A DNA stretch of 64,000 nucleotides, taken from the sequence record LC494302.1; one strand, given 5' to 3'. The first letter of the stretch is position 1, and the number at the start of each line of letters is the position of its first letter. A program made the position numbers and the translations under genes. This document shows, in pieces, positions 14,093-25,626 of this stretch. The notes beneath the pieces are model-generated. The model worked only from the letters and a program-made list of their open reading frames with translations, did not search any database and was not told the DNA's origin. Origin of the DNA: Escherichia phage SP27.

Positions 14093-14097
14093 TTAAT

Positions 14098-14307
14098 ATG
14101 CTTACTGTACAGGATAAGATCGACATCTTAAAGGTTAATATGTATGTGATTGATGCAGTACCTGGTAAAGTATTTGCATACGATGATAGTACTGTAAGCG
14201 ATTTCTACTATAGCCAGGCCGTGGGGGATCTTTCTGTACAGTCGGTTATTGAAAACGTAGTTAATGCAGCGTATGAGCATTTACTTTCAAATAGTACTTG
14301 CAATTAG
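14098..14307 (+). CDS. hypothetical protein
   Basis: 69 aa immediately after previous gene. Confidence 0.5.
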   Translation: MLTVQDKIDILKVNMYVIDAVPGKVFAYDDSTVSDFYYSQAVGDLSVQSVIENVVNAAYEHLLSNSTCN

Positions 14308-14357
14308 TTTTTAAACGCGTATAATGTTTTACATGAAGGGGAGAAATGATTCTCCCC
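14298..14357 (+). promoter_or_regulatory. class I early promoter plus 5' stem-loop cassette
   Basis: TTGCAA 14298-14303, TATAAT 14320-14325; hairpin GGGGAGAAatgaTTCTCCCC 14338-14357. Confidence 0.65.
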
Positions 14358-14376
14358 ACTAATTAAGGAATATGAA

Positions 14377-14523
14377 ATGAAAGCATCAAAAAAGAGTACT
14401 AACAAGAAAGCACGTTCAACCTTAGATGGGGTATTCCCTTTACGTTTCGTTGATGAAGTGGTTTCCTACCCGCCTGGCCTTACTCCTGAGATGGTAGAAA
14501 GTTTGCGTAAATCTAAAAAATAG
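14377..14523 (+). CDS. hypothetical small basic protein (48 aa, below ORF-track cutoff)
   Basis: read by hand: MKASKKSTNKKARSTLDG...; AAGGA RBS. Confidence 0.4.
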   Translation: MKASKKSTNKKARSTLDGVFPLRFVDEVVSYPPGLTPEMVESLRKSKK

Positions 14524-14526
14524 TAC

Positions 14527-14586
14527 TTGCAATTAGTTTTTAGTACTGTATAATGTTTTACATAGAGGGGGGAAATGGTTCTCCCC
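14527..14586 (+). promoter_or_regulatory. class I early promoter plus 5' stem-loop cassette
   Basis: TTGCAA 14527-14532, TATAAT 14549-14554; hairpin GGGGGGAAatggTTCTCCCC. Confidence 0.65.
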
Positions 14587-14604
14587 AATAACAGGAGAAA
14601 CAAA

Positions 14605-14757
14605 ATGAAACAATACAACGCTCGGTTTGATGTTACTATCGGCAACGGTAAAGGTCAATTCTCTTTCAGTACTCGACGCAGTTATACAGAAAACTTCCTG
14701 CGTAATTGTGCACTGACCGCCGCACAAATTAAACATTACTTTCAGGCTAAAAAATGA
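14605..14757 (+). CDS. hypothetical small protein (50 aa)
   Basis: start at ATG 14605 (MKQYNARFDV) after AGGAGA RBS. Confidence 0.45.
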   Translation: MKQYNARFDVTIGNGKGQFSFSTRRSYTENFLRNCALTAAQIKHYFQAKK

Positions 14758-14843
14758 GATCATTAGCTTATTACAGTTCGGCCCTGGTCGGTGCATTGAT
14801 CGCGGCGTTGTTAGTAACCTATCTATTCTTTATGGTGATTTAA
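14754..14843 (+). CDS. possible small hydrophobic peptide (29 aa)
   Basis: read by hand: MRSLAYYSSALVGALIAALLVTYLFFMVI; ATGA overlap. Confidence 0.3.
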   Translation: MRSLAYYSSALVGALIAALLVTYLFFMVI

Positions 14844-14981
14844 ATGAATCCTAACGGTATAATTTACAGTACTCCTAAAACGAAAGCAGACAAGGTAAAC
14901 GCTAAAAAAGCGAAAGTAAAGGAGTACATCAAGCAAGGCATGACGCGAAAGGCGGCGATTCTAAAAGCTAAAAATAAATGA
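14844..14981 (+). CDS. possible small Lys-rich protein (45 aa)
   Basis: read by hand: MNPNGIIYSTPKTKADKVNAKKAKVKEY... Confidence 0.3.
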   Translation: MNPNGIIYSTPKTKADKVNAKKAKVKEYIKQGMTRKAAILKAKNK

Positions 14982-14987
14982 AAAAAG

Positions 14988-15009
14988 TGGTTGACTTCGG
15001 TCAGCCATT
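14988..15009 (+). terminator. intrinsic terminator (first part of repeated intergenic module)
   Basis: GGTTGAC-TTCG-GTCAGCC hairpin with tetraloop, then TTTTGC. Confidence 0.5.
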
Positions 15010-15112
15010 TTGCTATTATATATTCATTGAGAGATAGCTCACTAGCCCACAGGGTGCAGGAGTGTATCTATTGTATAATGTTTGAGTACTTAAAACTATT
15101 TTTAAAAAAGTA

Positions 15113-15172
15113 CTTGCAAACTATCTCAATAAGCGTATAATGTTTTACATCGCAAGGGGAAACGGTTTCCCC
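15113..15172 (+). promoter_or_regulatory. class I early promoter plus 5' stem-loop cassette
   Basis: TTGCAA 15113-15118, TATAAT 15135-15140; hairpin GGGGAAacggTTTCCCC 15156-15172. Confidence 0.65.
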
Positions 15173-15192
15173 TAGTAATAAGGAAACAAATC

Positions 15193-15534
15193 ATGACTAT
15201 CTCAATTGCTCAATCTAACTTTGAAAACGAAATCATCGCCCAGGCACTGCGTTTAAATGATGGTCGGGCCGAAATCAATTACGGTTTCAATTCAGGCGGT
15301 TGTGAAAAATATCAGTACTTTATAACTGCTGATGGCTGTGTCCTGGGCATCAATACAGTTATTGTAAACATCCAAAAAATTAATTTCAATGATCCAGACG
15401 ATAGCCAGTTTTACATCACTGGCGTAGACGTGAACTATGAGGATGACTCACTAACTGATGATCACACTGGCGAGCGGTTAGAAAGTGCATACGGTGAAGA
15501 TGATTATCAGTCCGGTCCAGAAGATTTCGAATAA
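15193..15534 (+). CDS. hypothetical acidic protein
   Basis: 113 aa. Confidence 0.55.
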   Translation: MTISIAQSNFENEIIAQALRLNDGRAEINYGFNSGGCEKYQYFITADGCVLGINTVIVNIQKINFNDPDDSQFYITGVDVNYEDDSLTDDHTGERLESAYGEDDYQSGPEDFE

Positions 15535-15547
15535 TATAAAAAAATAG

Positions 15548-15606
15548 TTTGACAATAGATTATAGTACTGTATAATGTTTTACATGAAGGGGAGAATAGT
15601 TCTCCC
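15548..15606 (+). promoter_or_regulatory. promoter plus 5' stem-loop cassette (TTGACA variant)
   Basis: TTGACA 15548-15553, TAGTACTGTATAAT -10; hairpin GGGGAGAAtagTTCTCCCC. Confidence 0.65.
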
Positions 15607-15627
15607 CACTAACAGAGAGAAAACAAA

Positions 15628-15840
15628 ATGGCTAATATCCGGTCGAAATTAAAAAATGCAAAACAAGTTTTATTTTCAGATCATGAATACTTTAATAAAG
15701 ATATTACAGGAGTTACAAGTATCAAGGAAGTAAAAGAAAAAACCGGCGTTTTGTGTGATGTGCGATTAGTTGGAACATTTGGGAATAACGTGCTATATCG
15801 CTGCGGTGATTACAATTTTACACTGACTATCATTAACTAA
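15628..15840 (+). CDS. hypothetical protein
   Basis: 70 aa. Confidence 0.55.
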   Translation: MANIRSKLKNAKQVLFSDHEYFNKDITGVTSIKEVKEKTGVLCDVRLVGTFGNNVLYRCGDYNFTLTIIN

Positions 15841-15868
15841 AAATATTATCACAGTACTATCAAAGCTA

Positions 15869-15897
15869 TTGACAATGATTGATAGTACTGGCATAAT
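15869..15897 (+). promoter_or_regulatory. class II promoter
   Basis: CAGTACTATcaaagctATTGACAatgattgatAGTACTGGCATAAT. Confidence 0.6.
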
Positions 15898-15932
15898 AAC
15901 TTTTATCAACTACACTACTAAGGAATTAAAAA

Positions 15933-16112
15933 ATGGCTATCATCGCAAAAACTGAAATCGTTGGTCTGGATTCTATCATCATGACGTTTGAAGATCAAAA
16001 AGGTATGTATGTAGTTTCCTATGGTGATTATGTTCGGGAGTATGAAACGGTAGACGAAGCCTTTGAAAGTTATATTCGCCAGGTGAATAAAGCATACGAC
16101 GACTACCGCTAA
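15933..16112 (+). CDS. hypothetical small protein (59 aa, below ORF-track cutoff)
   Basis: read by hand: MAIIAKTEIVGLDSIIMTFEDQKG...; AAGGA RBS. Confidence 0.45.
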   Translation: MAIIAKTEIVGLDSIIMTFEDQKGMYVVSYGDYVREYETVDEAFESYIRQVNKAYDDYR

Positions 16113-16139
16113 AATATATTACCAGTACTATTAAATCTA

Positions 16140-16168
16140 TTGACAATGTTTGATAGTACTGTATAATA
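16140..16168 (+). promoter_or_regulatory. class II promoter
   Basis: CAGTACTATtaaatctATTGACAatgtttgatAGTACTGTATAAT. Confidence 0.6.
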
Positions 16169-16211
16169 AGTTTTATAAACAGTAGTTAACTTAACCTAAG
16201 AGAGAAATAAA

Positions 16212-16355
16212 ATGATCGCACTGGATTCATTCATCGACGCAGTACTGGCAAAAACTGGCGAGGATCTGACCGCAGAACAATACGCGATGATCGAACAATG
16301 TCAACAGGACGGTAAATCGGTGAAAGATACTGTTAAGATTATCCGCAAGATGTAA
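16212..16355 (+). CDS. hypothetical small protein (47 aa, below ORF-track cutoff)
   Basis: read by hand: MIALDSFIDAVLAKTGEDLTAEQYAMIEQCQQDG...; followed by terminator. Confidence 0.45.
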   Translation: MIALDSFIDAVLAKTGEDLTAEQYAMIEQCQQDGKSVKDTVKIIRKM

Positions 16356-16361
16356 GATTAT

Positions 16362-16390
16362 AGCCCACTGGTTAACGCTGGTGGGCTTTA
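16362..16390 (+). terminator. intrinsic terminator
   Basis: AGCCCACtggttaacgctgGTGGGCT hairpin, weak T-run. Confidence 0.5.
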
Positions 16391-16460
16391 ATTCATCACC
16401 CTATACAATGCCAGTACTCAACCGTTTATCTCGTTAGAATGCGTTACAGGACGTTTAACA

Positions 16461-16658
16461 ATGATTAGCATGAAATCAGTACAAAAACAAATAGAAACAT
16501 TATCAAAAATTAAACGTAAACAGTACTCCTTAGAATATACAATCAATGGTAACTATCATCTAATGAAAGAGAATAATTTTATAGTCATTGATGAATCATT
16601 GCAAATCATTAGTATAGTACTGAAAGCATTAATCAATGACAGAAAAAAATTAAAATAA
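16461..16658 (+). CDS. hypothetical protein
   Basis: 65 aa. Confidence 0.45.
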   Translation: MISMKSVQKQIETLSKIKRKQYSLEYTINGNYHLMKENNFIVIDESLQIISIVLKALINDRKKLK

Positions 16659-16662
16659 TCTA

Positions 16663-16691
16663 TTGACAATATCATCCAGTACTGGCATAAT
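16663..16691 (+). promoter_or_regulatory. class II promoter
   Basis: ATTGACAatatcatccAGTACTGGCATAAT; followed by about 300 nt leader with TGATCA repeats. Confidence 0.55.
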
Positions 16692-16989
16692 ACTTACACC
16701 AAGACGAGAACGTCACTAACCCATAGGGTGCACAAATGTAACTGTATAATATTGATCAAAAAATGATCTGATCAATACTTGATCAATTTGCGTAAAGTAG
16801 TATAATTCTATGCAGTTGGTTAGACGAAAGGTTATGATTAGTAGTGCAAGTGTATAAAAATTTTCATGGTGTATCGTTCCGCACATATGGGGATGAATAT
16901 GTGGTATCATGTGGATTGGAAAAAGTAAGAACAAGTAATATTATTGTCGCATTACAGTACTATAGTATTTTTATAATGAGGTTAAAATA

Positions 16990-17247
16990 ATGGCTGTAGG
17001 ATTCGCGAAAGATGGGGCCGAACAAGACGAGATTAACGCAGTGATTCAGGCTGCCGTTAACCACGCTAGAAAGCAAATTAACGCACAAATAGAATCACTG
17101 ATACATTGCCTCGACTGCGGCGATATAATCCCTGAGAAACGACGCCAGGCCGTTAAGGGATGTAAGTACTGCATAACTTGCCAGGAGGATCATGATAGTA
17201 CTTTTAAACGTCCCCCGCGTAATTGTTGGCATAGATCTATGAGATAA
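16990..17247 (+). CDS. TraR/DksA-family C4 zinc-finger protein
   Basis: INAQ...CLDCGDIIPEKRRQAVKGCKYCITCQ matches the TraR core INAH...CEACGNPIPEARRKIFPGVTLCVECQ as I recall it. Confidence 0.75.
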   Translation: MAVGFAKDGAEQDEINAVIQAAVNHARKQINAQIESLIHCLDCGDIIPEKRRQAVKGCKYCITCQEDHDSTFKRPPRNCWHRSMR

Positions 17248-17253
17248 AAAGTA

Positions 17254-17281
17254 TTGACAGTACTGAAAGATAGTTTATAAT
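17254..17281 (+). promoter_or_regulatory. sigma70-like promoter
   Basis: TTGACAgtactgaaagatagttTATAAT. Confidence 0.55.
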
Positions 17282-17310
17282 ATTTTATATCTTAACTGAG
17301 GATTGAAATC

Positions 17311-17667
17311 ATGGGAATACAACATATCACGCGTACTACTGACAATGGCGAGATCACTGGCTATCAAGTACAGGGCAAAGTAGCACAATTGCAGTACTGG
17401 TTTGTTAAACGTGGAATCATTGCACCGGATCTTGATTATGACCGTGTAGCGTTTATTGATTCTCTTTATGTTGATCCTGATAGTCGGGGCAATGGTGAAG
17501 GTAACGAATTAATGAATGCCTTTATTGATGCCGCCGATGATTCAGATTGTATCATCTTAGAATGCGATACGGGAGAAGATAACGCCTTTAATCTTAAAGA
17601 ATGGTACGAAGGTTTCGGATTCGAGGTATTGATAGATAGTGAATATCCTATCATGATTTTATCATAG
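17311..17667 (+). CDS. GNAT-family acetyltransferase-like protein
   Basis: LYVDPDSRGNGEGNELMNAF resembles the acetyl-CoA-binding R/Q-x-x-G-x-G/A motif of GNAT enzymes; 118 aa. Confidence 0.45.
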   Translation: MGIQHITRTTDNGEITGYQVQGKVAQLQYWFVKRGIIAPDLDYDRVAFIDSLYVDPDSRGNGEGNELMNAFIDAADDSDCIILECDTGEDNAFNLKEWYEGFGFEVLIDSEYPIMILS

Positions 17668-17669
17668 TA

Positions 17670-17727
17670 CTTGCATTTAGTTTTCAGTACTGTTATAGTA
17701 CTTACATCAAGGGGAAACATCTTCCCC
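17670..17727 (+). promoter_or_regulatory. class I early promoter plus 5' stem-loop cassette
   Basis: TTGCAT 17670-17675, TATAGT -10; hairpin GGGGAAacatcTTCCCC 17711-17727. Confidence 0.55.
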
Positions 17728-17745
17728 TACTAAGAGGAAATGAAA

Positions 17746-17934
17746 ATGGAAAACTTATCAAGTATTTTAGTACAAGATGATTTCGGTAATCCTGGAAGTG
17801 CTATCATTGTTCGGGGCAATAAAGCAACGTTTGTTATTGCTGGTGGACCCGTACAGCGTAGCATTAAAAATAATGCTGTTACCATTAATAATGTACGCTA
17901 TCGCTTAGATAAAGAATTAATTCATAAACTGTAA
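17746..17934 (+). CDS. hypothetical protein
   Basis: start at second ATG (MENLSS), 7 nt after GAGGA. Confidence 0.5.
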   Translation: MENLSSILVQDDFGNPGSAIIVRGNKATFVIAGGPVQRSIKNNAVTINNVRYRLDKELIHKL

Positions 17935-17961
17935 TATTAATTTAATAGAGGATAACAATAA

Positions 17962-18285
17962 ATGTACATTCATACTACTATCACAAAGGAAGTCCGTTGC
18001 CAGTTCGAAAGTATTCCGGGCGTATGTTTCATCACTGGTACGTTTTCCCCTGGTGATCGTGATAATCCAGTACTGTTACAATTACGCCATCCATCATGGG
18101 ATAAAGCATTTGATCTACCGTTGAATGAATTCGCAACTACTGCTGAAAAGTACATTAAAAATATTCGCGAGAATGATCGACTATTCATTAATGCTTTTAG
18201 TGATTCCGCGTTAAGCGAGATCCACGGCGTATTGGTTGCAATCATGGAATCAATGCAGAAAACTAAATTCAAACAAGGTGAATAA
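17962..18285 (+). CDS. hypothetical protein
   Basis: 107 aa; GAGGATAA RBS region. Confidence 0.55.
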   Translation: MYIHTTITKEVRCQFESIPGVCFITGTFSPGDRDNPVLLQLRHPSWDKAFDLPLNEFATTAEKYIKNIRENDRLFINAFSDSALSEIHGVLVAIMESMQKTKFKQGE

Positions 18286-18291
18286 AAACTA

Positions 18292-18351
18292 TTGACAATA
18301 GATTATAGTACTGTATAATAAGTTACATGAAGGGGAGAAATGATTCTCCCC
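18292..18351 (+). promoter_or_regulatory. promoter plus 5' stem-loop cassette (TTGACA variant)
   Basis: TTGACA 18292-18297, TATAAT 18314-18319; hairpin GGGGAGAAatgaTTCTCCCC 18332-18351. Confidence 0.65.
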
Positions 18352-18368
18352 ACTGAGAGGAAAGAAAA

Positions 18369-18581
18369 ATGCAAGGTCAACTAATCGTTCGTAAATGGTC
18401 TGATACTAACGAAAAACCGTGGGATGTACAATACATCGGACCGGATGGGGTATCACGTTATCAGCCTGGCGTAACGCATAGTACTGAGCAATATGCCGCC
18501 GCTCACCGCGAACGCCTGTTAGAATCCATGAAACAGGGATTCTGTGAAAAATTCATTCAAGATCATTGGCTGAAAGATTAA
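18369..18581 (+). CDS. hypothetical protein
   Basis: 70 aa. Confidence 0.55.
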   Translation: MQGQLIVRKWSDTNEKPWDVQYIGPDGVSRYQPGVTHSTEQYAAAHRERLLESMKQGFCEKFIQDHWLKD

Positions 18582-18598
18582 TAGAAGGAGTACAGCTT

Positions 18599-18691
18599 AT
18601 GCAAATGAATCCGATGATTATTGTTTTAGCTGTACTTATGATCATTCATGCAATTGTAGAAGTATTAACGCAATCAGGAGTAATAAAATGA
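18599..18691 (+). CDS. possible small membrane peptide (30 aa)
   Basis: read by hand: MQMNPMIIVLAVLMIIHAIVEVLTQSGVIK; AAGGAG RBS 8 nt upstream. Confidence 0.4.
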   Translation: MQMNPMIIVLAVLMIIHAIVEVLTQSGVIK

Positions 18692-18861
18692 TTCAAGTAG
18701 AATTATCAGTACTGAAAGATCTGTTTTATCGGTTAGGTACTACTGGAGAGTATCCTAAAAGTGATACCGCAAAACTTTTTGTATCACTCGATTTATGGCA
18801 ACGCGAACAATTAGTAATGTCCTGGCGTAAAGGTAAAGCAGATAGCGAGGTGAAAGCATGA
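18688..18861 (+). CDS. hypothetical small protein (57 aa)
   Basis: ATGA overlap with previous; read by hand. Confidence 0.4.
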   Translation: MIQVELSVLKDLFYRLGTTGEYPKSDTAKLFVSLDLWQREQLVMSWRKGKADSEVKA

Positions 18862-19007
18862 AAGAATTCTTATTCGAAGTAGTGTTTCAAGGTGTCGGTA
18901 GTAATCAATTGATTCGCTCAAGTGGTTACAATGTTAACCAGGCATGGAATAACATTAAACAAATGTACCCGAACGCTATCACATATCGCAACCCAAAAGA
19001 AGTTTAA
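18858..19007 (+). CDS. hypothetical small protein (49 aa)
   Basis: ATGA overlap with previous; read by hand. Confidence 0.4.
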   Translation: MKEFLFEVVFQGVGSNQLIRSSGYNVNQAWNNIKQMYPNAITYRNPKEV

Positions 19008-19021
19008 AAATAATTGAAAAA

Positions 19022-19043
19022 GGGATTGACTCCGGTCAGTCCC
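19022..19043 (+). terminator. intrinsic terminator (first part of repeated intergenic module)
   Basis: GGGATTGAC-TCCG-GTCAGTCCC hairpin preceded by A-run, followed by TTTGC. Confidence 0.55.
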
Positions 19044-19145
19044 TTTGCTATTATATACGCATAGAAACAAATCAGCCCACCGGGTGCATAAATGTATCTA
19101 TTGTTTGCTGGTGGCTAGTACTGAAAACTATTTTTAAAAAAGTAC

Positions 19146-19173
19146 TTGCATTGTACTTAGAATCAAGTATAAT
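19146..19173 (+). promoter_or_regulatory. class I early promoter
   Basis: AAAAAGTACTTGCATtgtacttagaatcaaGTATAATGTTTTACATC. Confidence 0.65.
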
Positions 19174-19182
19174 GTTTTACAT

Positions 19183-19251
19183 CAGGACGGGGAACGAAAC
19201 AAGTAACCCCGTTAAGTAGTCCAGGAGTAAGACATACGAAAAACTCCCCTG
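19183..19251 (+). other. conserved structured RNA-like element, copy 2
   Basis: near-identical to 8206-8277 with a few substitutions; same flanking promoter arrangement. Confidence 0.4.
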
Positions 19252-19261
19252 ATAAAATAGT

Positions 19262-19289
19262 TTGACAATAGAAAGTAAACGAGTATAAT
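19262..19289 (+). promoter_or_regulatory. sigma70-like promoter
   Basis: TTGACA 19262-19267, 16 bp spacer, TATAAT 19284-19289. Confidence 0.6.
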
Positions 19290-19322
19290 ACTTACATCAA
19301 CCACTGATAAGGAAACATAAAA

Positions 19323-19598
19323 ATGCGGATTCTACTGACAGCTAACGAAATCGAACAAGTACTGACTACTAACCTGGAAGACTGGAAACGTGAAGCAGAT
19401 ATCCAGGCGGTTCAATGGTTAAATGATAAGTTAACGCCGGATGACTTAAGCAAGATTGTAGATCCTCAATTCTACGAAGATATCCACGACACCGCGTTAA
19501 GCGTCGAGGATGTACTAGATAAGCACTTTATTGATACTGATTTGCAGGTTTACGGTCGTAAAAACTTTATCACTATTCACGACATTTACAATAATTAA
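19323..19598 (+). CDS. hypothetical acidic protein
   Basis: 91 aa. Confidence 0.55.
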   Translation: MRILLTANEIEQVLTTNLEDWKREADIQAVQWLNDKLTPDDLSKIVDPQFYEDIHDTALSVEDVLDKHFIDTDLQVYGRKNFITIHDIYNN

Positions 19599-19601
19599 GT
19601 A

Positions 19602-19664
19602 TTGACAAAGTATCTTAGTACTGTATAATAGTTTACATCGAGTGAGGGGAAACGGTTCCCCTCC
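19602..19664 (+). promoter_or_regulatory. promoter plus 5' stem-loop cassette
   Basis: TTGACA 19602-19607, TATAAT 19624-19629; hairpin GAGGGGAAacggTTCCCCTC. Confidence 0.65.
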
Positions 19665-19686
19665 TAACAAAGAGAGAGAAATAAAA

Positions 19687-19869
19687 ATGGCTAAGTGCAC
19701 TATCTGCAAGAAAGAAATAGTATTAGTTCCAAGTGCCCGTGAACGTGCCGCTCGGTTCGGTGGCAAAGCGTCAGACTATACAAAAATGTTTACTGCCCAT
19801 ACAGCTTGCCAGGTAGCAAAACGTTCACAAGAAAGCGTAGAATTAATGCGTAAACTTTCCAAAAAATAA
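19687..19869 (+). CDS. hypothetical small protein with CxxC...HxxC
   Basis: start at ATG 19687 (MAKCTICKK); possible zinc-binding residues. Confidence 0.5.
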   Translation: MAKCTICKKEIVLVPSARERAARFGGKASDYTKMFTAHTACQVAKRSQESVELMRKLSKK

Positions 19870-19871
19870 GT

Positions 19872-19933
19872 ATTGACAAAGTATCTTAGTACTGTATAAT
19901 AGTTTACATCAAGTGAGGGGAATGGTTCCCCTC
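19872..19933 (+). promoter_or_regulatory. promoter plus 5' stem-loop cassette (near-duplicate of the 19602 cassette)
   Basis: identical GTATTGACAAAGTATCTTAGTACTGTATAATAGTTTACATC; hairpin GAGGGGAAtggTTCCCCTC. Confidence 0.65.
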
Positions 19934-19956
19934 CTAACTAAAAGAGAGAAATAAAA

Positions 19957-20280
19957 ATGGCTATGATCCTTGCCCAGAAAGTAGAATTGAAAATTGTAAC
20001 CTCCTTTGACATTAACGTTAATCGGTGGACTGATTCACACGGCAATACTTACCACTCTTGCTACGTGTCTGCGTTAATTGGCGACCGCTGGGAAGACCTG
20101 GGACACGAAACCTTTACATACGGTTACGGTACACAAGGCGAATACACGGGCTTGGAGATCATTAAAGAAACCGTTATAGGTTTCAACCCGAAAGAAAAAG
20201 TTATTCACCGCATCGAGGAAGAGATCAACAAAGAAATAACAGTTCGCTACCACGATGTAAAACGTAAGAAAGACATGTAA
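19957..20280 (+). CDS. hypothetical protein, paralog of 13074..13418
   Basis: shares GNTY, YGYG and DVKRKKD. Confidence 0.6.
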   Translation: MAMILAQKVELKIVTSFDINVNRWTDSHGNTYHSCYVSALIGDRWEDLGHETFTYGYGTQGEYTGLEIIKETVIGFNPKEKVIHRIEEEINKEITVRYHDVKRKKDM

Positions 20281-20302
20281 TAGAATCCATTTAAAGTACT
20301 AT

Positions 20303-20331
20303 TTGACATTGCCCAGATAGTACTTTATAAT
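20303..20331 (+). promoter_or_regulatory. sigma70-like promoter
   Basis: TTGACAttgcccagatagtacttTATAAT. Confidence 0.5.
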
Positions 20332-20375
20332 AGACTCTAACTTGTAGTACTAACTCAACTAATAGGATGTATACC

Positions 20376-20771
20376 ATGATTACTAAATTCTACGCTACCC
20401 GTGAAGCTGCCCGTATTGTTGCACGCGAGGAAGGCGAAACATTTAAAGACATGGGCAAAGATGCACCGAAAGGTCAACGCTGGGCCGTACAGTTCAAAGA
20501 GATCTCTGATATTGTGAATTCACCGGAGCCAGTACTAACAGCAGCAGAACTAAAACGAGCGGATTTACTGGCGTCAATACTTGATGCACAAGATGAGTTT
20601 ATCGCTGATTCTGATATCAAAGTACAGACAAACCACACCGCTTGGACTCACGCGGATCACCTGGCAAACCTTAAGCGTCCAAGTGAACTGATTCGCAACC
20701 AGAAAGAGATCCGACACGACCGTAAGGGTAATCGTGTAACAGTATACAGTAAACGCCGCCAGGTTATCTAA
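20376..20771 (+). CDS. hypothetical protein, paralog of 7335..7601
   Basis: start at ATG 20376 (MITKFYATREAARIVAR); C-term HDRKGNRVTVY. Confidence 0.6.
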   Translation: MITKFYATREAARIVAREEGETFKDMGKDAPKGQRWAVQFKEISDIVNSPEPVLTAAELKRADLLASILDAQDEFIADSDIKVQTNHTAWTHADHLANLKRPSELIRNQKEIRHDRKGNRVTVYSKRRQVI

Positions 20772-20803
20772 TAACTTGCAGTACTAACAACACGGCGGGA
20801 TCA

Positions 20804-20829
20804 GTTCCCGCCTTTTTTATAGGACAAAC
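20804..20829 (+). terminator. intrinsic terminator
   Basis: GGCGGGAtcagTTCCCGCC followed by TTTTTT. Confidence 0.7.
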
Positions 20830-20832
20830 AAA

Positions 20833-21087
20833 ATGATTAAGGTTCAACTATATAAAGATAACATCTTACGGGTACACTATAAAGCACCTCAGAGAATCAT
20901 CACAAAGGCCGTACAGCTTGCAAATGAGTTTATTAATGGTAACCTATTACCTAGGAAGTTAAGCAACGGGAAACTGCGTGTAATCGACGTGGACACTAAC
21001 AACAGGATAGTAATCGAGAACACAGGAAAGATAAACCTTTATGAGCATCAACAATACAATAAGAAAATAAAACTAATATCACGTTGA
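20833..21087 (+). CDS. hypothetical protein
   Basis: 84 aa. Confidence 0.5.
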   Translation: MIKVQLYKDNILRVHYKAPQRIITKAVQLANEFINGNLLPRKLSNGKLRVIDVDTNNRIVIENTGKINLYEHQQYNKKIKLISR

Positions 21088-21140
21088 CAGTACTCAAATG
21101 TTTTAGTACTATATGTACATACCAACACGGGGGAAACAAA

Positions 21141-21383
21141 ATGATTACTTTAGAAAAACGTATCAAAGAAACTACATCGCTGGTGGAACTGTTAACAGTA
21201 CTCAAATGTAAAACAACACCATTCAGCACGCCGGACTTTATTAATATGGTTGATGTTAATGGTCGCTATCGTATCACGGTCGAACAAGGAGCGGCGAAAG
21301 TATTCAGTACTAAAAACACGAAGGAAGTGATCCACGCCGTTAATGTTAAAAAAGTAGTTGCCATTGATAGTAAAGTACTGTAA
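21141..21383 (+). CDS. hypothetical protein
   Basis: start at ATG 21141 (MITLEKRIKE). Confidence 0.5.
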   Translation: MITLEKRIKETTSLVELLTVLKCKTTPFSTPDFINMVDVNGRYRITVEQGAAKVFSTKNTKEVIHAVNVKKVVAIDSKVL

Positions 21384-21414
21384 GATAGTTACATTAACTC
21401 AAGGAGAACATGCA

Positions 21415-21999
21415 ATGCGTAATTATACTAAATTCATCCGTACACTGTCAGAAATGGAAACCAACAAAGAGATCCTTTCAGCTTGTCGGTTAGCTGGCCT
21501 GGAGATCATCGGTGCTGGTTCTTCCCGTATAGTTTTCGCTTTAAATGATCGGTTAGTGATTAAGGTCGCGAATTGTGATGCGGGTGTAGAACAAAATGAA
21601 ACTGAATGTAAGGTATGGAATTTTTTAGACTATGACCGCCCTCAGTTGAAACAGTACTTTGCAAAGGTGCATATGCATTTATGCGATCCTGATAATATGT
21701 TTATCGTTATGGATCGGTTGAGTACTGCAAGTAAAGGCAGTGTGAAGCACGTAAACGCGTGCAATGAATTAAAGTACAATATTAAACGTAATGCAATCGA
21801 CCGCCAGCACCGCTTTGCTGATGCACTACAACACGTTGATGATACATTATCAACACTAACGATAAGAGATATCAGAAAACAGAATATCGGCCAGGATCGT
21901 AATGGACTTATTAAAGTACTTGATTACGGTTTAACCAGCAATATCTGGAATCAGTACTATAAAAAGCGTGATGTGGCAGCAAGTAAGGTAACACGATAA
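21415..21999 (+). CDS. protein-kinase-like protein (putative small Ser/Thr kinase)
   Basis: IGAGSSRIVF (Gly loop), VIKV (beta3 Lys), RDIRKQNIG (catalytic-loop-like) and KVLDYG (DFG-like) in canonical order; start at ATG 21415 after AAGGAG. Confidence 0.5.
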   Translation: MRNYTKFIRTLSEMETNKEILSACRLAGLEIIGAGSSRIVFALNDRLVIKVANCDAGVEQNETECKVWNFLDYDRPQLKQYFAKVHMHLCDPDNMFIVMDRLSTASKGSVKHVNACNELKYNIKRNAIDRQHRFADALQHVDDTLSTLTIRDIRKQNIGQDRNGLIKVLDYGLTSNIWNQYYKKRDVAASKVTR

Positions 22000-22013
22000 A
22001 AAAGATTAAAAAA

Positions 22014-22035
22014 GGGATTGACTCCGGTCAGTCCC
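22014..22035 (+). terminator. intrinsic terminator (first part of repeated intergenic module)
   Basis: GGGATTGAC-TCCG-GTCAGTCCC hairpin, identical to copies at 19022 and 24270. Confidence 0.55.
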
Positions 22036-22140
22036 TTTGCTATTATATATCCATTGAGAGATAACTCACTGACCCATAGGGTGCGGAAGTGTATCTATTA
22101 TATAAGTATTCAGTACTGAAAACTATTTTTAAAAAAGTAC

Positions 22141-22202
22141 TTGCATTGTACTTAGAATCAAGTATAATGTTTTATATCGAGAGGGGAAATGGTTCTCCCT
22201 GG
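22141..22202 (+). promoter_or_regulatory. class I early promoter plus 5' stem-loop cassette
   Basis: TTGCAT 22141-22146, TATAAT 22163-22168; hairpin AGGGGAAatggTTCTCCCT. Confidence 0.6.
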
Positions 22203-22219
22203 CAATAAGGAATAAAATC

Positions 22220-22441
22220 ATGACTACAATGACTTGCATTTACGCTTCCAATCTACTGAATGATGCGGCCTTTAATGTTGATTCAGAATATCAATGTTAT
22301 CGGGATGAAAATAAAAAAGTTTTTGTAGTTGATAATAATGGTTTCCATATTGAATTACAATCCGGCTTCACTGGTGTTGATGGTAAATCAGTATGGGGCG
22401 TACAGGATGATAAAGGCACATATCATTTTAAACGTAATTAA
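22220..22441 (+). CDS. hypothetical protein
   Basis: 73 aa. Confidence 0.55.
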   Translation: MTTMTCIYASNLLNDAAFNVDSEYQCYRDENKKVFVVDNNGFHIELQSGFTGVDGKSVWGVQDDKGTYHFKRN

Positions 22442-22444
22442 GTA

Positions 22445-22503
22445 TTGACAAAGTATACCAGTACTGTATAATAGTTTACATCAAGGGGAGAATAGTTCTC
22501 CCC
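22445..22503 (+). promoter_or_regulatory. promoter plus 5' stem-loop cassette
   Basis: TTGACA 22445-22450, TATAAT 22467-22472; hairpin GGGGAGAAtagTTCTCCCC 22485-22503. Confidence 0.65.
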
Positions 22504-22525
22504 GATACTAAAAGGAAACAAAATT

Positions 22526-22798
22526 ATGTCCAGCTACTCCGCTACTATGATCATTAAAGATATGAACGGTAATCCTACTTCTGCTGGTGGATCATTTGGA
22601 AACATTAATTTAGATGGTCGGTTATCCATGCAATCAGCAATCGATGCAGCGAAAGAAGTTTTTAAGAATGAATGTACTGTTAGTAAGCTGGATTATATGG
22701 GATTTGCTATCGAAAAAACTAATCGTTTTGTGGACTACAAAAAACCACTGATGATTGATACTAACCTGAAAGCAAACGAAGTGGAGTACTTATTATGA
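22526..22798 (+). CDS. hypothetical protein
   Basis: 90 aa. Confidence 0.55.
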   Translation: MSSYSATMIIKDMNGNPTSAGGSFGNINLDGRLSMQSAIDAAKEVFKNECTVSKLDYMGFAIEKTNRFVDYKKPLMIDTNLKANEVEYLL

Positions 22799-22986
22799 CA
22801 GTTGAAGAAGTTAAAAAAGTACTGGCAGTACTACGCTATCATAATCATTGTAAGGTGAAGAATGATCCTGATTATCTTGATTCATCCCTGGAAGAGGATA
22901 CACTACAAGCAATAAGCCATATGCAAACATTAGCAAAGCGTATGACCGAAAAGAATAGACCGGACTATATCGGAAATAAAATTTAA
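22795..22986 (+). CDS. hypothetical protein
   Basis: ATGA overlap with previous gene. Confidence 0.5.
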   Translation: MTVEEVKKVLAVLRYHNHCKVKNDPDYLDSSLEEDTLQAISHMQTLAKRMTEKNRPDYIGNKI

Positions 22987-22993
22987 AAAGTAC

Positions 22994-23054
22994 TTGCATT
23001 GTAGTTAGATTAACGTATAATGTTTTACATAGAGCGGGGGAATAGTTCTCCCGC
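22994..23054 (+). promoter_or_regulatory. class I early promoter plus 5' stem-loop cassette
   Basis: TTGCAT 22994-22999, TATAAT 23016-23021; hairpin GCGGGGGAAtagTTCTCCCGC. Confidence 0.65.
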
Positions 23055-23072
23055 CAGTCCAGGAGATACACC

Positions 23073-23336
23073 ATGAACACTATCGAAATCACTATCAATG
23101 CACACGTATACGACAACGTAATCATGCAAACTACTATGACCGCTAATGATACCAGTACTTTGCGGAATACTGTTATTAGTGCCGTATGTGCCGCTATCGG
23201 TGATGTCGCCCTGGAAAATGCAGAACATATCAACAACGGTTTCACTATGTGCAAGCGTGATAACGCAAAACATATCATCGTAGAAGGTTACGGCGGTGTA
23301 GAATTTAATGTTTATATGAAAAAAGTACTTGCATAA
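23073..23336 (+). CDS. hypothetical protein
   Basis: 87 aa. Confidence 0.55.
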   Translation: MNTIEITINAHVYDNVIMQTTMTANDTSTLRNTVISAVCAAIGDVALENAEHINNGFTMCKRDNAKHIIVEGYGGVEFNVYMKKVLA

Positions 23337-23385
23337 TAACTAAAACAAAGTATAATGTTTTGCATAGGGGGAGATATCCTCCCCC
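23329..23385 (+). promoter_or_regulatory. class I early promoter plus 5' stem-loop cassette
   Basis: TTGCAT 23329-23334, TATAAT 23351-23356; hairpin GGGGGAGatatcCTCCCCC. Confidence 0.6.
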
Positions 23386-23403
23386 ACTAAAAGGAGTAAT
23401 AAA

Positions 23404-23628
23404 ATGGCTAACTTTGATGAACTGATGCGGGAAGTAGCTAACCTGGCAGAAGAGAAGAAATCATTCGATTCTATCTATAACACCGCTCATCGTGATTCAG
23501 TACTGGCATGTACTCAGGATCAAAAAGATGAACTAATCGCCACCTATCATGAAGCATGGAAGTACTACCGACAATGGGAGAAAGAAGAAAGAGAGTCTAC
23601 CATTGACGGCCTCAACAATCTAATCTAA
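23404..23628 (+). CDS. hypothetical protein
   Basis: 74 aa. Confidence 0.55.
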   Translation: MANFDELMREVANLAEEKKSFDSIYNTAHRDSVLACTQDQKDELIATYHEAWKYYRQWEKEERESTIDGLNNLI

Positions 23629-23647
23629 AAGTTTTATTTCAGTACTA

Positions 23648-23676
23648 TTGACATAGCTTGATAGTACTGATGTAAT
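23648..23676 (+). promoter_or_regulatory. class II promoter
   Basis: CAGTACTATTGACAtagcttgatAGTACTGATGTAAT. Confidence 0.5.
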
Positions 23677-23704
23677 AACTTTACTAACTACAAGGGGAAA
23701 CATA

Positions 23705-23962
23705 ATGGAACAGTTCACACAATATCGGGTAAATCCTCAAGCTATGGCCTACGTAGAAGACCATAAAACATTACCAGTACTAACACCAATTAAAGGCCAT
23801 ATCTATCGTGCAATGTCATGGAATACCGCCCAGGATGGATATACTACCGCTGGCGTGGGTATGTATTGCGGGAATGGTGAATGGTTTGATCCAAATAATC
23901 CGGTAGCCATTGACAGTACTGAAAAAATGAAATGGGCCGACTACATCGAAGATATTTCATAA
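23705..23962 (+). CDS. hypothetical protein
   Basis: 85 aa. Confidence 0.55.
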   Translation: MEQFTQYRVNPQAMAYVEDHKTLPVLTPIKGHIYRAMSWNTAQDGYTTAGVGMYCGNGEWFDPNNPVAIDSTEKMKWADYIEDIS

Positions 23963-23968
23963 AACTAT

Positions 23969-24029
23969 TTGACAGTACTAACCAGTAATGTATAATGTTT
24001 TACATAGAGCGGGGGAATAGTTCTCCCGC
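23969..24029 (+). promoter_or_regulatory. promoter plus 5' stem-loop cassette
   Basis: TTGACA 23969-23974, TATAAT 23991-23996; hairpin GCGGGGGAAtagTTCTCCCGC, identical to the one at 23034. Confidence 0.65.
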
Positions 24030-24051
24030 CAATAGTTTGGAGTAAAACATT

Positions 24052-24252
24052 ATGTCTATCGCTATCGCCCTGGTTGAAGTACTGAAAGAAGCTAAAGCCA
24101 ACCAGATCGACGTAAAGATCCAGGAACTACAAAACGGCGTAATCGGCTGTACTTGTACCGCTGGTGGAGCGGCAGACTATCGAGAACACGAATCACTCGA
24201 ATCACTGGTTCGGTATCTTACCATGATCGTTGATGATTGGAGAATCATCTAA
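24052..24252 (+). CDS. hypothetical protein
   Basis: 66 aa. Confidence 0.55.
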   Translation: MSIAIALVEVLKEAKANQIDVKIQELQNGVIGCTCTAGGAADYREHESLESLVRYLTMIVDDWRII

Positions 24253-24269
24253 CAAAAAAGAATAAAAAA

Positions 24270-24291
24270 GGGATTGACTCCGGTCAGTCCC
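24270..24291 (+). terminator. intrinsic terminator (first part of repeated intergenic module)
   Basis: GGGATTGAC-TCCG-GTCAGTCCC hairpin. Confidence 0.55.
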
Positions 24292-24414
24292 TTTGCTATT
24301 ATATACGCATAGACAAAAACTAGCCCACAGGGTGCATAGGTGTATCTAAAATATATGGTTAATAACGGTGAGTAACTATCTGCTGGTGGAGTGAAAACTA
24401 TTAATAAAAAAGTA

Positions 24415-24443
24415 TTGACAAAGTATATCAGTACTGCGATAAT
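24415..24443 (+). promoter_or_regulatory. class II-like promoter
   Basis: TTGACAaagtatatcAGTACTGCGATAAT; downstream variant hairpin GGGCGGCaatggtgcgacGGCCC. Confidence 0.5.
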
Positions 24444-24496
24444 GTATCTCGTAGGGCGGCAATGGTGCGACGGCCCACAAAGTTAGGAGATTCAAA

Positions 24497-24829
24497 ATGA
24501 GTACTTCAATCGCTATCGTTAAAGCTTTCATCCGTACCAATGTTTCATCTGTATTCATCGACGGTATGGATCGGGAAGTAGAATACTCAATCATTATCGC
24601 ACAGACTGCAAACGGTGCTCGGTATATCCTCAATGATAGTGAAGCAAATCACTACTACTTCACTAAAGCTACTGGCTTTAAACGCATCGATGCCGATGTA
24701 GTATACGCTAAGATGAATAAGCTGGTAGACAAGATTAACGCTAAAGGCACTATTGATTTACAGTACTGGACCGAAACCGATCCAGAATATGGATCTCACC
24801 GCTACCTGAATCCAGGTATTAAAATGTAA
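24497..24829 (+). CDS. hypothetical protein
   Basis: 110 aa; AGGAGA RBS. Confidence 0.55.
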   Translation: MSTSIAIVKAFIRTNVSSVFIDGMDREVEYSIIIAQTANGARYILNDSEANHYYFTKATGFKRIDADVVYAKMNKLVDKINAKGTIDLQYWTETDPEYGSHRYLNPGIKM

Positions 24830-24836
24830 AAAGTAC

Positions 24837-24898
24837 TTGCATAGTACTTAGATTCATGTATAATGTTTTACATAGAGAGGGGGAAATGGTTCTCCCTC
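24837..24898 (+). promoter_or_regulatory. class I early promoter plus 5' stem-loop cassette
   Basis: TTGCAT 24837-24842, TATAAT 24859-24864; hairpin GAGGGGGAAatggTTCTCCCTC. Confidence 0.65.
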
Positions 24899-24918
24899 CT
24901 AAATTAAGGAGTTTTATC

Positions 24919-25320
24919 ATGACCTTCTCAATCACTTCCTTCGCTGACGTTTTAGTACTGGCTCGGACTTTTGGTAAAGATGCACTGGAGTACGCTGTAA
25001 GTAATGGCACTATCCAACCGGAACAGTGCCGCATCATTGGAAACTGCAAACGTTGGGCGGTATCCAATACTATTGCACTGGAAAACTTCCACGATGGCAA
25101 CAATGAATATTCTGTTGATGTAGTATTCGAAGCCGTTGATCTCGGCGGTATCTATAATACTAACCTGAATGATGTGCGTATCGTTCGCACGGGGTTCGGT
25201 GCTTATGATGTATCTATCCGTGAAGCTATGAACACCGGATACATTAGCAAGGACTTACTTGCTCACATCATGCAGCTGTGTACGGAACGTAACGAAGCAC
25301 GTACTATCTTAGGGCTGTAA
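24919..25320 (+). CDS. hypothetical protein
   Basis: start at ATG 24919 (MTFSITSF) after AAGGAG. Confidence 0.55.
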   Translation: MTFSITSFADVLVLARTFGKDALEYAVSNGTIQPEQCRIIGNCKRWAVSNTIALENFHDGNNEYSVDVVFEAVDLGGIYNTNLNDVRIVRTGFGAYDVSIREAMNTGYISKDLLAHIMQLCTERNEARTILGL

Positions 25321-25344
25321 GCAATACACATCACCAAACATCAT

Positions 25345-25365
25345 AGGCCGCTCTCTAGCGGCCTT
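25345..25365 (+). terminator. possible terminator hairpin
   Basis: AGGCCGCtctctaGCGGCCT; no clear T-run. Confidence 0.35.
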
Positions 25366-25388
25366 AACTATATCAGGAGTACATACAC

Positions 25389-25598: not shown

Positions 25599-25626
25599 TG
25601 CGTAAAGGGATCTAGTACTGATTCAG

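Follow-up and report, generated by a model that had tools for sequence, protein, structure and literature searches.

The genome of Escherichia phage SP27 (LC494302.1) raises the question of why the same intergenic module recurs behind several of its small genes. The module was recognised in a stretch of 64,000 nucleotides of this genome, hereafter referred to as the window, and in a preliminary description it was interpreted as a boundary at which gene cassettes are shuffled by recombination between flanking repeats. Our analysis suggests that the answer has two parts. The core of the module is very probably a promoter-driven structured RNA, and cassette exchange seems to rely mainly on promoter and leader sequences, most of which lie elsewhere in the same region.

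The window is, by its sequence matches, that of an Asteriusvirus-like (Rak2-like) jumbo coliphage. In a megablast search, the section 14000-25000 matched Escherichia phage vB_EcoM_E9.1 over its full length with 97% identity, and partial, mosaic matches were obtained with about 90 jumbo phages of the Asteriusvirus type, among them PBECO4 and 121Q. Phage fEgEco12 has a direct terminal repeat (DTR) of 20,993 bp, for which PhageTerm and restriction digests provided the evidence (PMC13070987). In the alignment, position 1 of this phage corresponds to position 4822 of the window and position 19800 to position 24557. The modules can be placed in the equivalent of this DTR of about 21 kb (4822..25750) because the two ends of the fEgEco12 DTR correspond to 4822 and about 25750. 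All copies of the RNA element and all class I promoters of the window fall inside this interval, and the matches to the covariance model R1 of the RNA element, which is described below, are confined to 5895-24351. The region between 5 and 25 kb contains open reading frames (ORFs) of 40-210 amino acids, which are "hypothetical" in all relatives and lie behind many sigma70-type promoters. Most of these ORFs cannot be aligned between genera.

The module follows the genes ending at 14981, 19007, 21999 and 24252, as had been described; all of the listed pieces were found again and the ORF ends match. The 22-mer hairpin GGGATTGACTCCGGTCAGTCCC occurs exactly at 19022, 22014 and 24270, with 0 copies expected, and the variant GTGGTTGACTTCGGTCAGCCAT is present at about 14987 in module 1. 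The element TTTGCTATTATATA is found exactly at 15009, 19044, 22036 and 24292. The core RCCCAYNGGGTGC has 9 exact copies, compared with 0.14 expected by chance. They are located at 8003, 15045, 16719, 19075, 22072 and 24323 on the plus strand and at 5911, 8061 and 10485 on the minus strand, and the latter bear out the opposite orientation that had been reported for the core. The core copies of the preliminary description are real, but it had missed those at 8003(+) and 16719(+) and the degenerate copies at about 6076(+) and 6132(-). The window contains a total of 10-11 copies of the RNA element on both strands. An alignment of the four modules extends over about 200 nt and has a mean column identity of 74%. 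The similarity exceeds the promoter consensus because the alignment takes in the A-run, the hairpin, the -10 region, the RNA element, the UP element and the class I promoter, and the preliminary description thus holds against its own reservation that only a promoter consensus might be shared. Each module, a spacer of 150-200 bp, is made up of four parts, namely a terminator-like hairpin, a sigma70 promoter, an element of about 48 nt and the UP-element promoter of the next operon. The modules are mosaics. RNA type A unites modules 1 and 3 and type B unites modules 2 and 4, but modules 2 and 3 have class I promoters that are 94% identical to each other. The class I promoter that had been described as closing the modules is indeed found in modules 1-3, but module 4 has the non-class I promoter TTGACA-17-GATAAT at 24415..24443(+), detected by the promoter scan.

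All four modules lie on the plus strand. Module 1 begins with the terminator-like hairpin AAAGTGGTTGAC-TTCG-GTCAGCCATTTT (14984..15011), which was found by the terminator scan and probably ends the upstream operon, whose ORF stops at 14981. The promoter of the RNA overlaps it, with the -35 hexamer in the 5' arm of the hairpin (14991..15019; TTGACT-17-TGc-TATTAT, 10/12 in the scan, TG present). The RNA element (15026..15073; R1 59.2 bits, E=2e-15) has its predicted start at A 15026 and consists of the hairpin P1 (UGAG/CUCA), the hairpin P2 (GCCC-ACA-GGGU), GC and a tail. It is followed by the class I promoter TTGCAA-16-TATAAT with the GGGGAAACGGTTTCCCC leader, which extends to the ATG at 15193 (15114..15192; repeat families D1/D2 and promoter scan). 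In module 2 (19019..19054 for both parts), the hairpin at 19019-19046 overlaps the RNA promoter at 19026-19054; the RNA element is a short form without the P1 stem and with an A-rich 5' end, AUAGAAACAAAUC (19061..19103; R1 35 bits, E=1e-7), and the class I promoter TTGCAT-16-TATAAT (19146..19173) is the reference copy of D2. In module 3 (22011..22046), the hairpin at 22011-22038 overlaps the RNA promoter at 22018-22046 in the same scans, the RNA element has the P1 stem UGAG/CUCA (22053..22100; R1 64.2 bits, E=6e-17), and the class I promoter with its leader hairpin (22141..22219; D1, D2) reaches to the ATG at 22220. Module 4 (24267..24302) has its hairpin at 24267-24294, the overlapping RNA promoter at 24274-24302 and a short-form RNA element (24309..24351; R1 41.8 bits, E=8e-10).

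Why does the central element have a promoter of its own? The promoter scan identified TTGACT-17-TGc-TATTAT, which matches sigma70 promoters at 10 of 12 positions and has an extended -10 region, at 4/4 modules, and the -10 region is the TTTGCTATTATATA element of the preliminary description. In all four modules, the -35 hexamer TTGACT lies inside the 5' arm of the preceding hairpin, which is located directly 3' of the upstream stop codon, is accompanied by a T-run and scores like an intrinsic terminator. In the same scan, copies outside the modules were found to possess TTGAC(A/T)-17-TGg-CATAAT, in each case on the strand of the copy itself. The conserved element starts at the A of a conserved "CAU", seven nucleotides past the -10 region, and from this geometry transcription is predicted to start at the same A. 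The arrangement was also examined in 131 distinct copies that were drawn from the window, six phage genera and metagenome contigs. A promoter of at least 9/12 is present at the fixed distance in 120 of these copies (92%), compared with 1.6% of random positions, and the -10 region most often ends 5 nt ahead of "CAU". The -35 hexamer is situated within a stable hairpin in 57 of 136 copies.

The element that would be transcribed from this promoter consists of the P1 hairpin, 2-3 nt, the invariant hairpin P2 (RCCC-AYN-GGGU), GC and the tail nGArrUgUAUCUAU. P1 has a stem of 3-5 bp with free sequence and a purine- or A-rich loop of 6-8 nt, for instance AGAACAA, AGAUAA, GAGAAA or GCGAAA. At least 12 kinds of P1 stem occur, among them UGGC/GCCG, UGAG/CUCA, GACG/CGUC, AGUC/GACU, AGAC/GUCU and ACCAC/GUGGU as well as AGCA/UGCU, GCCA/UGGC, GGAG/CUCC, GGAA/UUCC and ACCG/CGGU. 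The short forms of modules 2 and 4 are devoid of the P1 stem and keep the A-rich stretch. An alignment of all copies with MAFFT left P1 out of register, and therefore the covariance model R1 was built from 14 copies of equal geometry. R1 yielded 70 matches in the window and six further loci, 10 of which are in the window. In the R1 alignment, P1 is paired in 93% of cases, compensatory changes are found in 4/4 pairs, and these pairs are the top four mutual-information pairs of the alignment. The number of double-change cells in P1 was 101, compared with 37±4 in shuffles, and the signal collapsed when the partners were slid against each other. Pairing and covariation of P1 were alike in an independent metagenome set of 86 matches. 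Since the choice of the 14 copies was biased and the alignments had been fitted to R1, a further test was added, in which copies were chosen by the invariant core alone and the 22 nt upstream of it were examined. A hairpin of at least 4 bp lies beside the core in 61% of the copies and in 27% of the shuffles (maximum 46%), and the mean minimum free energy was -3.35 kcal/mol, compared with -1.0±0.2 kcal/mol in shuffles. P2 is consistent with pairing, as its outer pair (R1-U11 of P2) alternates between G·U and A-U; moreover, a CG-to-UA double change is seen in a single copy, and the loop is 4 nt long in some copies. Covariation neither proves nor disproves P2 because this hairpin is invariant. 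The tail is conserved to 60-88% per position, and the conservation ends 3' of it. A third helix, in which the tail would pair with either the 5' end or the loop of P1, was also considered. The duplex energies were -4.8 kcal/mol for own and -4.35 kcal/mol for swapped partners (permutation p=0.028), no mutual-information pair beyond P1 was found, and we do not claim this helix.

The covariation of P1 bears on the alternative that the conserved sequence is a DNA operator. According to this idea, RCCCAYNGGGTGC..GTATCTA at +17 to +47 binds a regulator that silences the promoters or blocks elongation, which would fit the sequence invariance of the 13-mer and its fixed position and orientation relative to the promoter. 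However, an operator leaves the covarying P1 unexplained, the motif is non-palindromic and no candidate regulator was identified, and we regard this alternative as very improbable. A coding function of the element was likewise considered and rejected. A start codon (AUG/GUG/UUG) is frequent at "nUG UAU CUA", but the length and the frame of the resulting ORF are not conserved, the Shine-Dalgarno (SD) spacing is too short and the P1 stems vary freely; the ORF 14991-15140 with its TTG start is spurious. In public records, short coding sequences for "hypothetical proteins" have been placed on top of the RNA element on either strand, for instance in the loci L024 (9314-9427, 13383-13475 and 16355-16456), L003 (3384-3557, CBB_7) and L006 (11959-12099). 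These annotations are probably mistaken.

How widely is the element distributed? A 71-nt query matched jumbo phages of Escherichia, Salmonella, Klebsiella (RaK2, K64-1), Cronobacter (GAP32), Pectobacterium (CBB) and Erwinia (Hallingskeid). In IMG/VR, a scan for the pattern returned solely contigs of 345-378 kb or fragments of such contigs, and metagenomes contribute many additional copies. In CBB, every copy is located within the annotated terminal repeat of 22.5 kb. Between genera, the DTRs resemble each other at the nucleotide level in essentially nothing but the RNA genes, the promoter/leader units and a few ORFs, and this similarity covers 10/10 RNA copies. The positions of the copies are syntenic in six Asteriusvirus genomes, save one presence/absence difference. 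The element is absent from 5,426 E. coli genomes, and mimicry of a host RNA is not supported; 185,000 bacterial genomes gave two single pattern matches, both of which were rejected by R1. The search of the whole window against Rfam 15 at gathering thresholds gave zero matches, and the search with two copies in E-value mode gave only chance-level matches of at most 18.5 bits, far under the gathering scores. Literature searches for the motif sequence and for promoters and non-coding RNAs (ncRNAs) of Rak2-like phages returned unrelated primer matches only, and the CBB paper lists RpoD-like promoters, the RNA element not being among them. The element can be regarded as an RNA undescribed in Rfam 15 and in the literature searched, and the nesting of its promoter in the preceding terminator as a new point.

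The orientation of the copies and the sequences behind them are informative with respect to the mode of action. About one third of the copies run against the direction of the genes. In the window (8003/8073 and 6076/6132), in GAP32 and in CBB, copies form convergent pairs whose cores are 58-70 nt apart. Another promoter is always found between the RNA element and the next gene, about 40-70 nt 3' of the element. A terminator consisting of a GC hairpin and a U-run follows 20-25 nt past the conserved element in 3-4 of 8 solo minus-strand copies, and there is no ORF behind it in several cases. Among the paired copies, 3/16 have a terminator-like site within 120 nt.

These observations have to be compared with the idea of a cis-acting leader. 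Here, the nascent P1-P2 structure would modify its own polymerase by antitermination of the put or nut/N type, or it would stabilise or regulate the downstream mRNA; in the case of antitermination, the polymerase from the nested promoter would read through the next operon and its terminators. The put RNA of HK022 and the lambdoid nut sites (boxA/boxB) are short promoter-proximal stem-loop RNAs of phage early units with purine-rich loops. The RNA element resembles them in being a short promoter-proximal stem-loop RNA of apparently early transcription units with purine-rich hairpin loops. It comes directly after a strong, presumably early promoter, it has two stem-loops like put, and the P1 loops GAACA, GAGAA and GCGAA recall the purine-rich loops of boxB. 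The plus-strand copies lie between a promoter and downstream terminators and genes in the same orientation, and most of them have no terminator before the next gene, which makes read-through likely. Moreover, mRNAs are classically stabilised by a hairpin lying 2-3 nt from their 5' end. However, the remaining third of the copies, which are on the minus strand or convergent, face away from all genes or face each other, and several minus-strand copies run straight into a strong terminator with no ORF behind it, which would be pointless for an antiterminator. There is no boxA-like motif, about 10 copies are present as compared with 2, and processive antitermination would not require a fresh copy for each operon. 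A put- or nut-like role is weakened because of the minus-strand copies, the terminators after some copies and the extra promoter that separates each copy from the gene. The cis-acting leader, including its antitermination form, appears unlikely to us.

The convergent doublets are also reminiscent of selfish repeated DNA. Bacterial REP/REPIN sequences are hairpin repeats scattered over intergenic regions; an invariant motif adjoins the hairpin, and inverted doublets are frequent. If the element belonged to this kind of DNA or to miniature inverted-repeat transposable elements, a transposase or nuclease would recognise the single-stranded hairpin with its invariant motif, and the inverted doublets would be mobile. 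The multiple copies in both orientations, the conserved spacing of the convergent doublets (about 58-70 nt), the free-sequence stem adjoining an invariant motif and the presence or absence of the copy in 16660-16978 among close relatives agree with such a scenario; the likeness in dispersed hairpins, motif and doublets fits an RNA gene equally well. The sigma70 promoter that 92% of the copies have kept at a constant distance, and that places the predicted start exactly at the base of the hairpin, is not needed by a DNA element. In contrast to REP/REPIN sequences, the copies are phage-borne, carry a correctly spaced promoter, occupy syntenic positions among Asteriusvirus genomes and are confined to the terminator-promoter gaps of the DTR. 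No transposase was seen, although no protein search was aimed at one, and we know of no cognate transposase for the phage element. It is quite improbable that the copies are selfish DNA.

A function in replication or DNA entry has to be considered, too. Transcripts prime replication by forming R-loops at oriF and oriG of T4, and transcription from the early promoters of T7 aids genome entry. Likewise, transcripts from the promoters of the RNA element could prime replication via R-loops, or their synthesis could pull the genome into the cell. The strong, presumably early promoters occur only in the terminal repeat, plausibly the part of the genome that enters the cell first, and most copies point inward. 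However, one third of the copies point the other way and neither role requires a conserved RNA fold. Among the alternatives considered here, this is the one to which we give the least credence.

Does the module nevertheless serve as a recombination boundary, as had been proposed? For the comparison of breakpoints, the section 4000-26500 of the window was aligned with five distinct Asteriusvirus genomes. The 43 junctions correspond to 60 distinct junction ends, of which 43 are situated in promoter/leader repeats that cover 16% of the region. Seven of the 60 ends fall into the four modules (4.1% expected, p=0.012) and a single one lies within an RNA gene proper; the RNA part is not enriched. In 15 junctions, an overlap of 48-108 nt is present on one side and extra DNA on the other side, which is the signature of a cassette flanked by direct repeats. 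For instance, TH47 is devoid of 22200-22982 with its three ORFs, a segment bounded by copies of the class I promoter/leader at 22132 and 22985. ECO103 contains an extra 455 bp flanked by 15105-15199, and 121Q an extra 248 bp flanked by 24401-24468. Moreover, the block 16660-16978, which comprises an RNA gene and its leader, is absent from ECO103 and EC22.5-2. The class I unit is present in 16-17 copies between 6442 and 24885 (e.g. 10110-10199, 14518-14607 and 22132-22221), most of which lie outside the modules. It consists of an A/T-rich UP-like stretch, the promoter AAAAAGTACTTGCA-N16/17-TATAAT and a GC hairpin of the GGGGAGAAATGGTTCTCCCC type in the 5' untranslated region (UTR) ahead of the SD sequence and the ATG. 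The genome comparison shows that the repeated promoter and leader parts of the modules, and of many other intergenic regions, supply the homology for the gain and loss of single-gene cassettes, and the class I promoter with its leader hairpin appears to be the main recombination substrate of the region. The cassette-shuffling idea is supported in so far as homology breakpoints lie at repeated regulatory sequences (43/60 ends, 15 junctions with flanking repeats). However, it has to be modified with respect to the substrate, which is mainly the class I promoter and the 5' UTR hairpin, mostly outside the modules, whereas the RNA gene received 1/60 ends.

A second conserved non-coding segment of about 85 nt was observed at 8198-8290 and 19177-19262, with a class I promoter on one side and another promoter, TTGACA-16-TATAAT, on the other. 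Its sequence, ACAUCAGGACGGGGAAC..CCCCGUUAAGUAG..CCAGGAGUAAG..CUCCCCUGAU, adopts a closed fold with several stems (-21 kcal/mol, z=-2.85), and in PBECO4 an additional copy has been inserted into module 2. This segment may be another small RNA or a leader. Furthermore, the sequence AGTTCCCCTACCGCGTGGGGATAGTTTCCCCGC at 5748-5790 resembles in both stem flanks the type I-E repeat of the clustered regularly interspaced short palindromic repeats (CRISPR) of E. coli, GAGTTCCCCGCGCCAGCGGGGATAAACCG. As AGTTCCCCTACCGCGTGGGGATAGTTTCCCCGC can also be folded like the leader hairpins of class I, its likeness to the CRISPR repeat may be a coincidence.

The exchange of cassettes at promoter and leader sequences has a precedent in the promoter-early stem-loop cassettes (PeSLs) of T4-type phages (Arbiol 2010, PMC2839356; Comeau 2014, PMC4122927), and by analogy it may be considered as known in kind (PMC4122927). 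In both cases, a stem-loop is combined with a sigma70-like early promoter and an A/T-rich upstream region, the units are repeated between small ORFan genes of hyperplastic regions, and the junctions of indels and replacements among close relatives lie in repeats that flank gained or lost cassettes. The A-run upstream is present as well, and SD sequence and ATG follow the second (class I) promoter and not the nested one. In contrast to PeSLs, the -35 hexamer is located inside the stem-loop and not 3' of it, an overlap that is tighter than in the published PeSLs. Moreover, the first promoter drives a structured non-coding element of about 48 nt and the second one serves the gene, the RNA part is not a preferred crossover site, and the units occur in Rak2-like jumbo phages, where they are confined to the long DTR. 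It may be asked whether the whole module, including its core, is a pure boundary of the PeSL type, that is, a shared regulatory sequence providing recombination homology, with a transcribed element that has no function. This explanation would be compatible with the clustering of the junctions at repeated regulatory sequences, 15 of them with flanking direct repeats, with the mosaic structure of the modules, with the observation that the RNA does not exceed its flanks in conservation within the genus, and with the precedent in T4-type phages (PMC4122927). However, just 1/60 junction ends lies in the RNA gene, and a homology patch needs neither a hairpin with compensatory stem substitutions nor an invariant 13-mer that is kept from E. 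coli phages to those of Erwinia and Pectobacterium amid unalignable ORFs. The presence of both orientations would be useless for recombination between direct repeats. The view that the central AGCCCAC..GGGTGC..GTATCTA is a mere patch of homology is contradicted by its own promoter, its covarying hairpin and its conservation across genera, and a pure recombination boundary is in our opinion unlikely.

The promoter-driven RNA can be integrated into the following model. By its sequence, the module is a compact "stop, small-RNA gene, restart" unit in the early, terminally repeated DNA of a Rak2-like jumbo phage. The GC-rich hairpin with its T-run probably ends the upstream operon, and its 5' arm carries the -35 hexamer of a near-consensus promoter for the host sigma70. 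By sequence and covariation, the predicted RNA starts with P1, followed by P2, GC and the tail, and the UP-element promoter of the next operon comes about 40 nt further on. The same RNA unit is also found without a terminator, on the opposite strand and in convergent pairs. The RNA is expected to be abundant early in infection, as there are about 10 genes per DTR, all on strong promoters, and therefore about 20 per virion DNA. Invariant P2 and the tail may form the recognition site for a host or phage protein, P1 may mainly cap or protect the 5' end, and the RNA could be active on its own as a free small RNA, or else while forming the 5' end of longer transcripts.

Enterobacterial small RNAs (sRNAs) of the Hfq type provide a further comparison for the mode of action. 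Like these, the element has its own sigma70 promoter, and in some minus-strand copies of about 100 nt, an A-rich motif is combined with an AU-rich spacer and a U-tailed GC hairpin. In contrast to Hfq-type sRNAs, most copies lack a terminator, the genes are present in multiple copies, the conserved part is a hairpin with a tail, and neither a conserved single-stranded seed nor complementary targets were found. The complement of the tail occurs 45 times in the window, with 40±7 expected, and is not enriched there; host mRNA targets were not searched. A protein-binding role is favoured because the conserved part is the hairpin and the tail and not a seed, because no complementary targets or host homologue were found, and because the copies are numerous, on strong promoters and free in their orientation relative to the genes. 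Nevertheless, this mode of action, which was deduced from the sequences, can be put forward only tentatively. It is worth mentioning that phage PA5oct, which is related to the Rak2-like group, expresses ncRNAs from non-coding regions of its long terminal repeat; ncRNA001 and ncRNA002 of 236 and 451 nt are highly transcribed and were detected by RNA-seq (PMC7318152). Homology with these ncRNAs was rejected, as R1 had no match in either locus.

Several findings weigh against this model. Start sites, 3' ends and abundance of the RNA are all predictions. A terminator precedes the next gene in only 2/28 solo plus-strand copies, and therefore most copies may never be released as discrete small RNAs. 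Pairing of P2 is supported by one compensatory change and by the loop-length variants, and neither a complementary target nor a partner protein has been identified for the RNA. Among close relatives, the RNA is 95.4% identical compared with 95.7% for the flanks, thus showing no extra conservation, and therefore the reading that it has no function of its own stays alive. With respect to recombination, some of the promoter/leader intervals that entered the breakpoint test had been set by hand following inspection, and selection for intact genes alone would favour junctions in intergenic regions. Taking everything together, we lean slightly towards the account as a whole, that is, a stop-restart module, an early structured RNA with a protein-binding role and the exchange of cassettes at promoters and leaders.

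The remaining RNA genes of the window were located by the promoter scan and R1. A gene without an embedded terminator is present at 7950..8031(+), with the promoter TTGACT-17-TGg-CATAAT at 7950-7978 and a predicted RNA at about 7985-8031. It converges on the gene at 8045..8122(-), which has its promoter at 8122-8094 and gives a short-form RNA ending at 8045. A stand-alone gene is located at 10412..10553(-), with the promoter at 10553-10525 and the conserved element at 10516-10469. Its predicted start is at about 10518, a bidirectional terminator with a U-run lies at 10444-10424, and the predicted RNA has about 105 nt (10519-10412). The gene at 16663..16747(+) has its promoter at 16663-16691, a predicted start at A 16698 and the P1 stem GACG/CGUC. 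The gene at 5895..5985(-), which was detected by R1, has the P1 stem AGUC/GACU and the tail variant ACGCCCAAAAUUCA. The degenerate convergent pair at 6040..6194, also found with R1, is composed of a weak plus-strand copy at about 6076, which fails E=1, and a minus-strand copy at 6111-6159 (26.9 bits) with its promoter at 6194-6167. Several TGATCA (GATC) sites are clustered at 16750-16800, immediately 3' of the RNA copy at 16699, in a long untranslated stretch ahead of a gene for a DksA-like zinc-finger protein (16990-17247). A similar cluster (L006, about 14690-14760) comes after the corresponding RNA copy of the Erwinia phage Hallingskeid, and the sites could be an operator or related to Dam/SeqA. 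Two terminator-like hairpins at 11541-11557 and 12272-12293 (AGCCCACCAGGTGGGCT, AGCCCACC..GTGGGCT) open with AGCCCAC like the first seven bases of the RNA core, which may be due to chance or to a distant relationship.

Some further repeats deserve mention. The palindrome AGTACT is extremely frequent across 5000-25000 and related loci, mostly as CAGTACTG (as AGTACTGTACA in Mimasvirus and Hallingskeid). It is found in promoter spacers beside the -10 region, 3' of the RNA tails and in UP regions, and may be a site for a regulator or for a modification or restriction function. Repeats with a period of 8 nt (D12; GGATGGCT / AGACGGCT / AAACGGCT ...) form a run at 5560-5730, some 750 nt inward from the left end of the DTR equivalent. 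The part of this area at 5615-5780 is conserved at the nucleotide level in other genera, and the periodic repeats could be an element related to the terminus, packaging or entry. Outside the DTR equivalent, tandem arrays of small paralogous genes are located at 26500-31600 and 41800-43900 and scattered over 31800-55900. The arrays D6/D7/D9 have a spacing of about 215-270 nt and a conserved ..GGnACnAACTATCAA.. motif, the arrays D4/D5 have a spacing of about 440-480 nt, and the coding motif GAAGAnGAATAnTTTCAGTACAGC recurs in D15/D18.

What do these findings mean for the biology of the Rak2-like jumbo phages? Members of this group, such as PBECO4, 121Q, RaK2, K64-1, GAP32 and CBB, are under development for therapy, and most of their early genes have no known function. 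The breakpoint data extend shuffling of the PeSL type from T4-type phages to the terminal repeats of jumbo phages and reveal which part of the module recombines. The terminator-nested promoter represents a neat and portable "stop-restart" design. At present, the RNA element is either unannotated or mis-annotated as tiny "hypothetical proteins". However, an invariant structured RNA with about 10 copies per terminal repeat, which is found in phages of six host genera while the genes around it turn over, is a strong candidate for a core component of host take-over. It is conceivable, though rather unlikely on present evidence, that the RNAs of the DTR constitute a new multi-copy family of early sRNAs with promoters nested in the preceding terminators, whose invariant hairpin and tail capture or recruit a specific protein of the host or the phage as a decoy, sponge or scaffold during the take-over of the host. 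If this were true, the RNA family would be among the first products of the incoming DNA.

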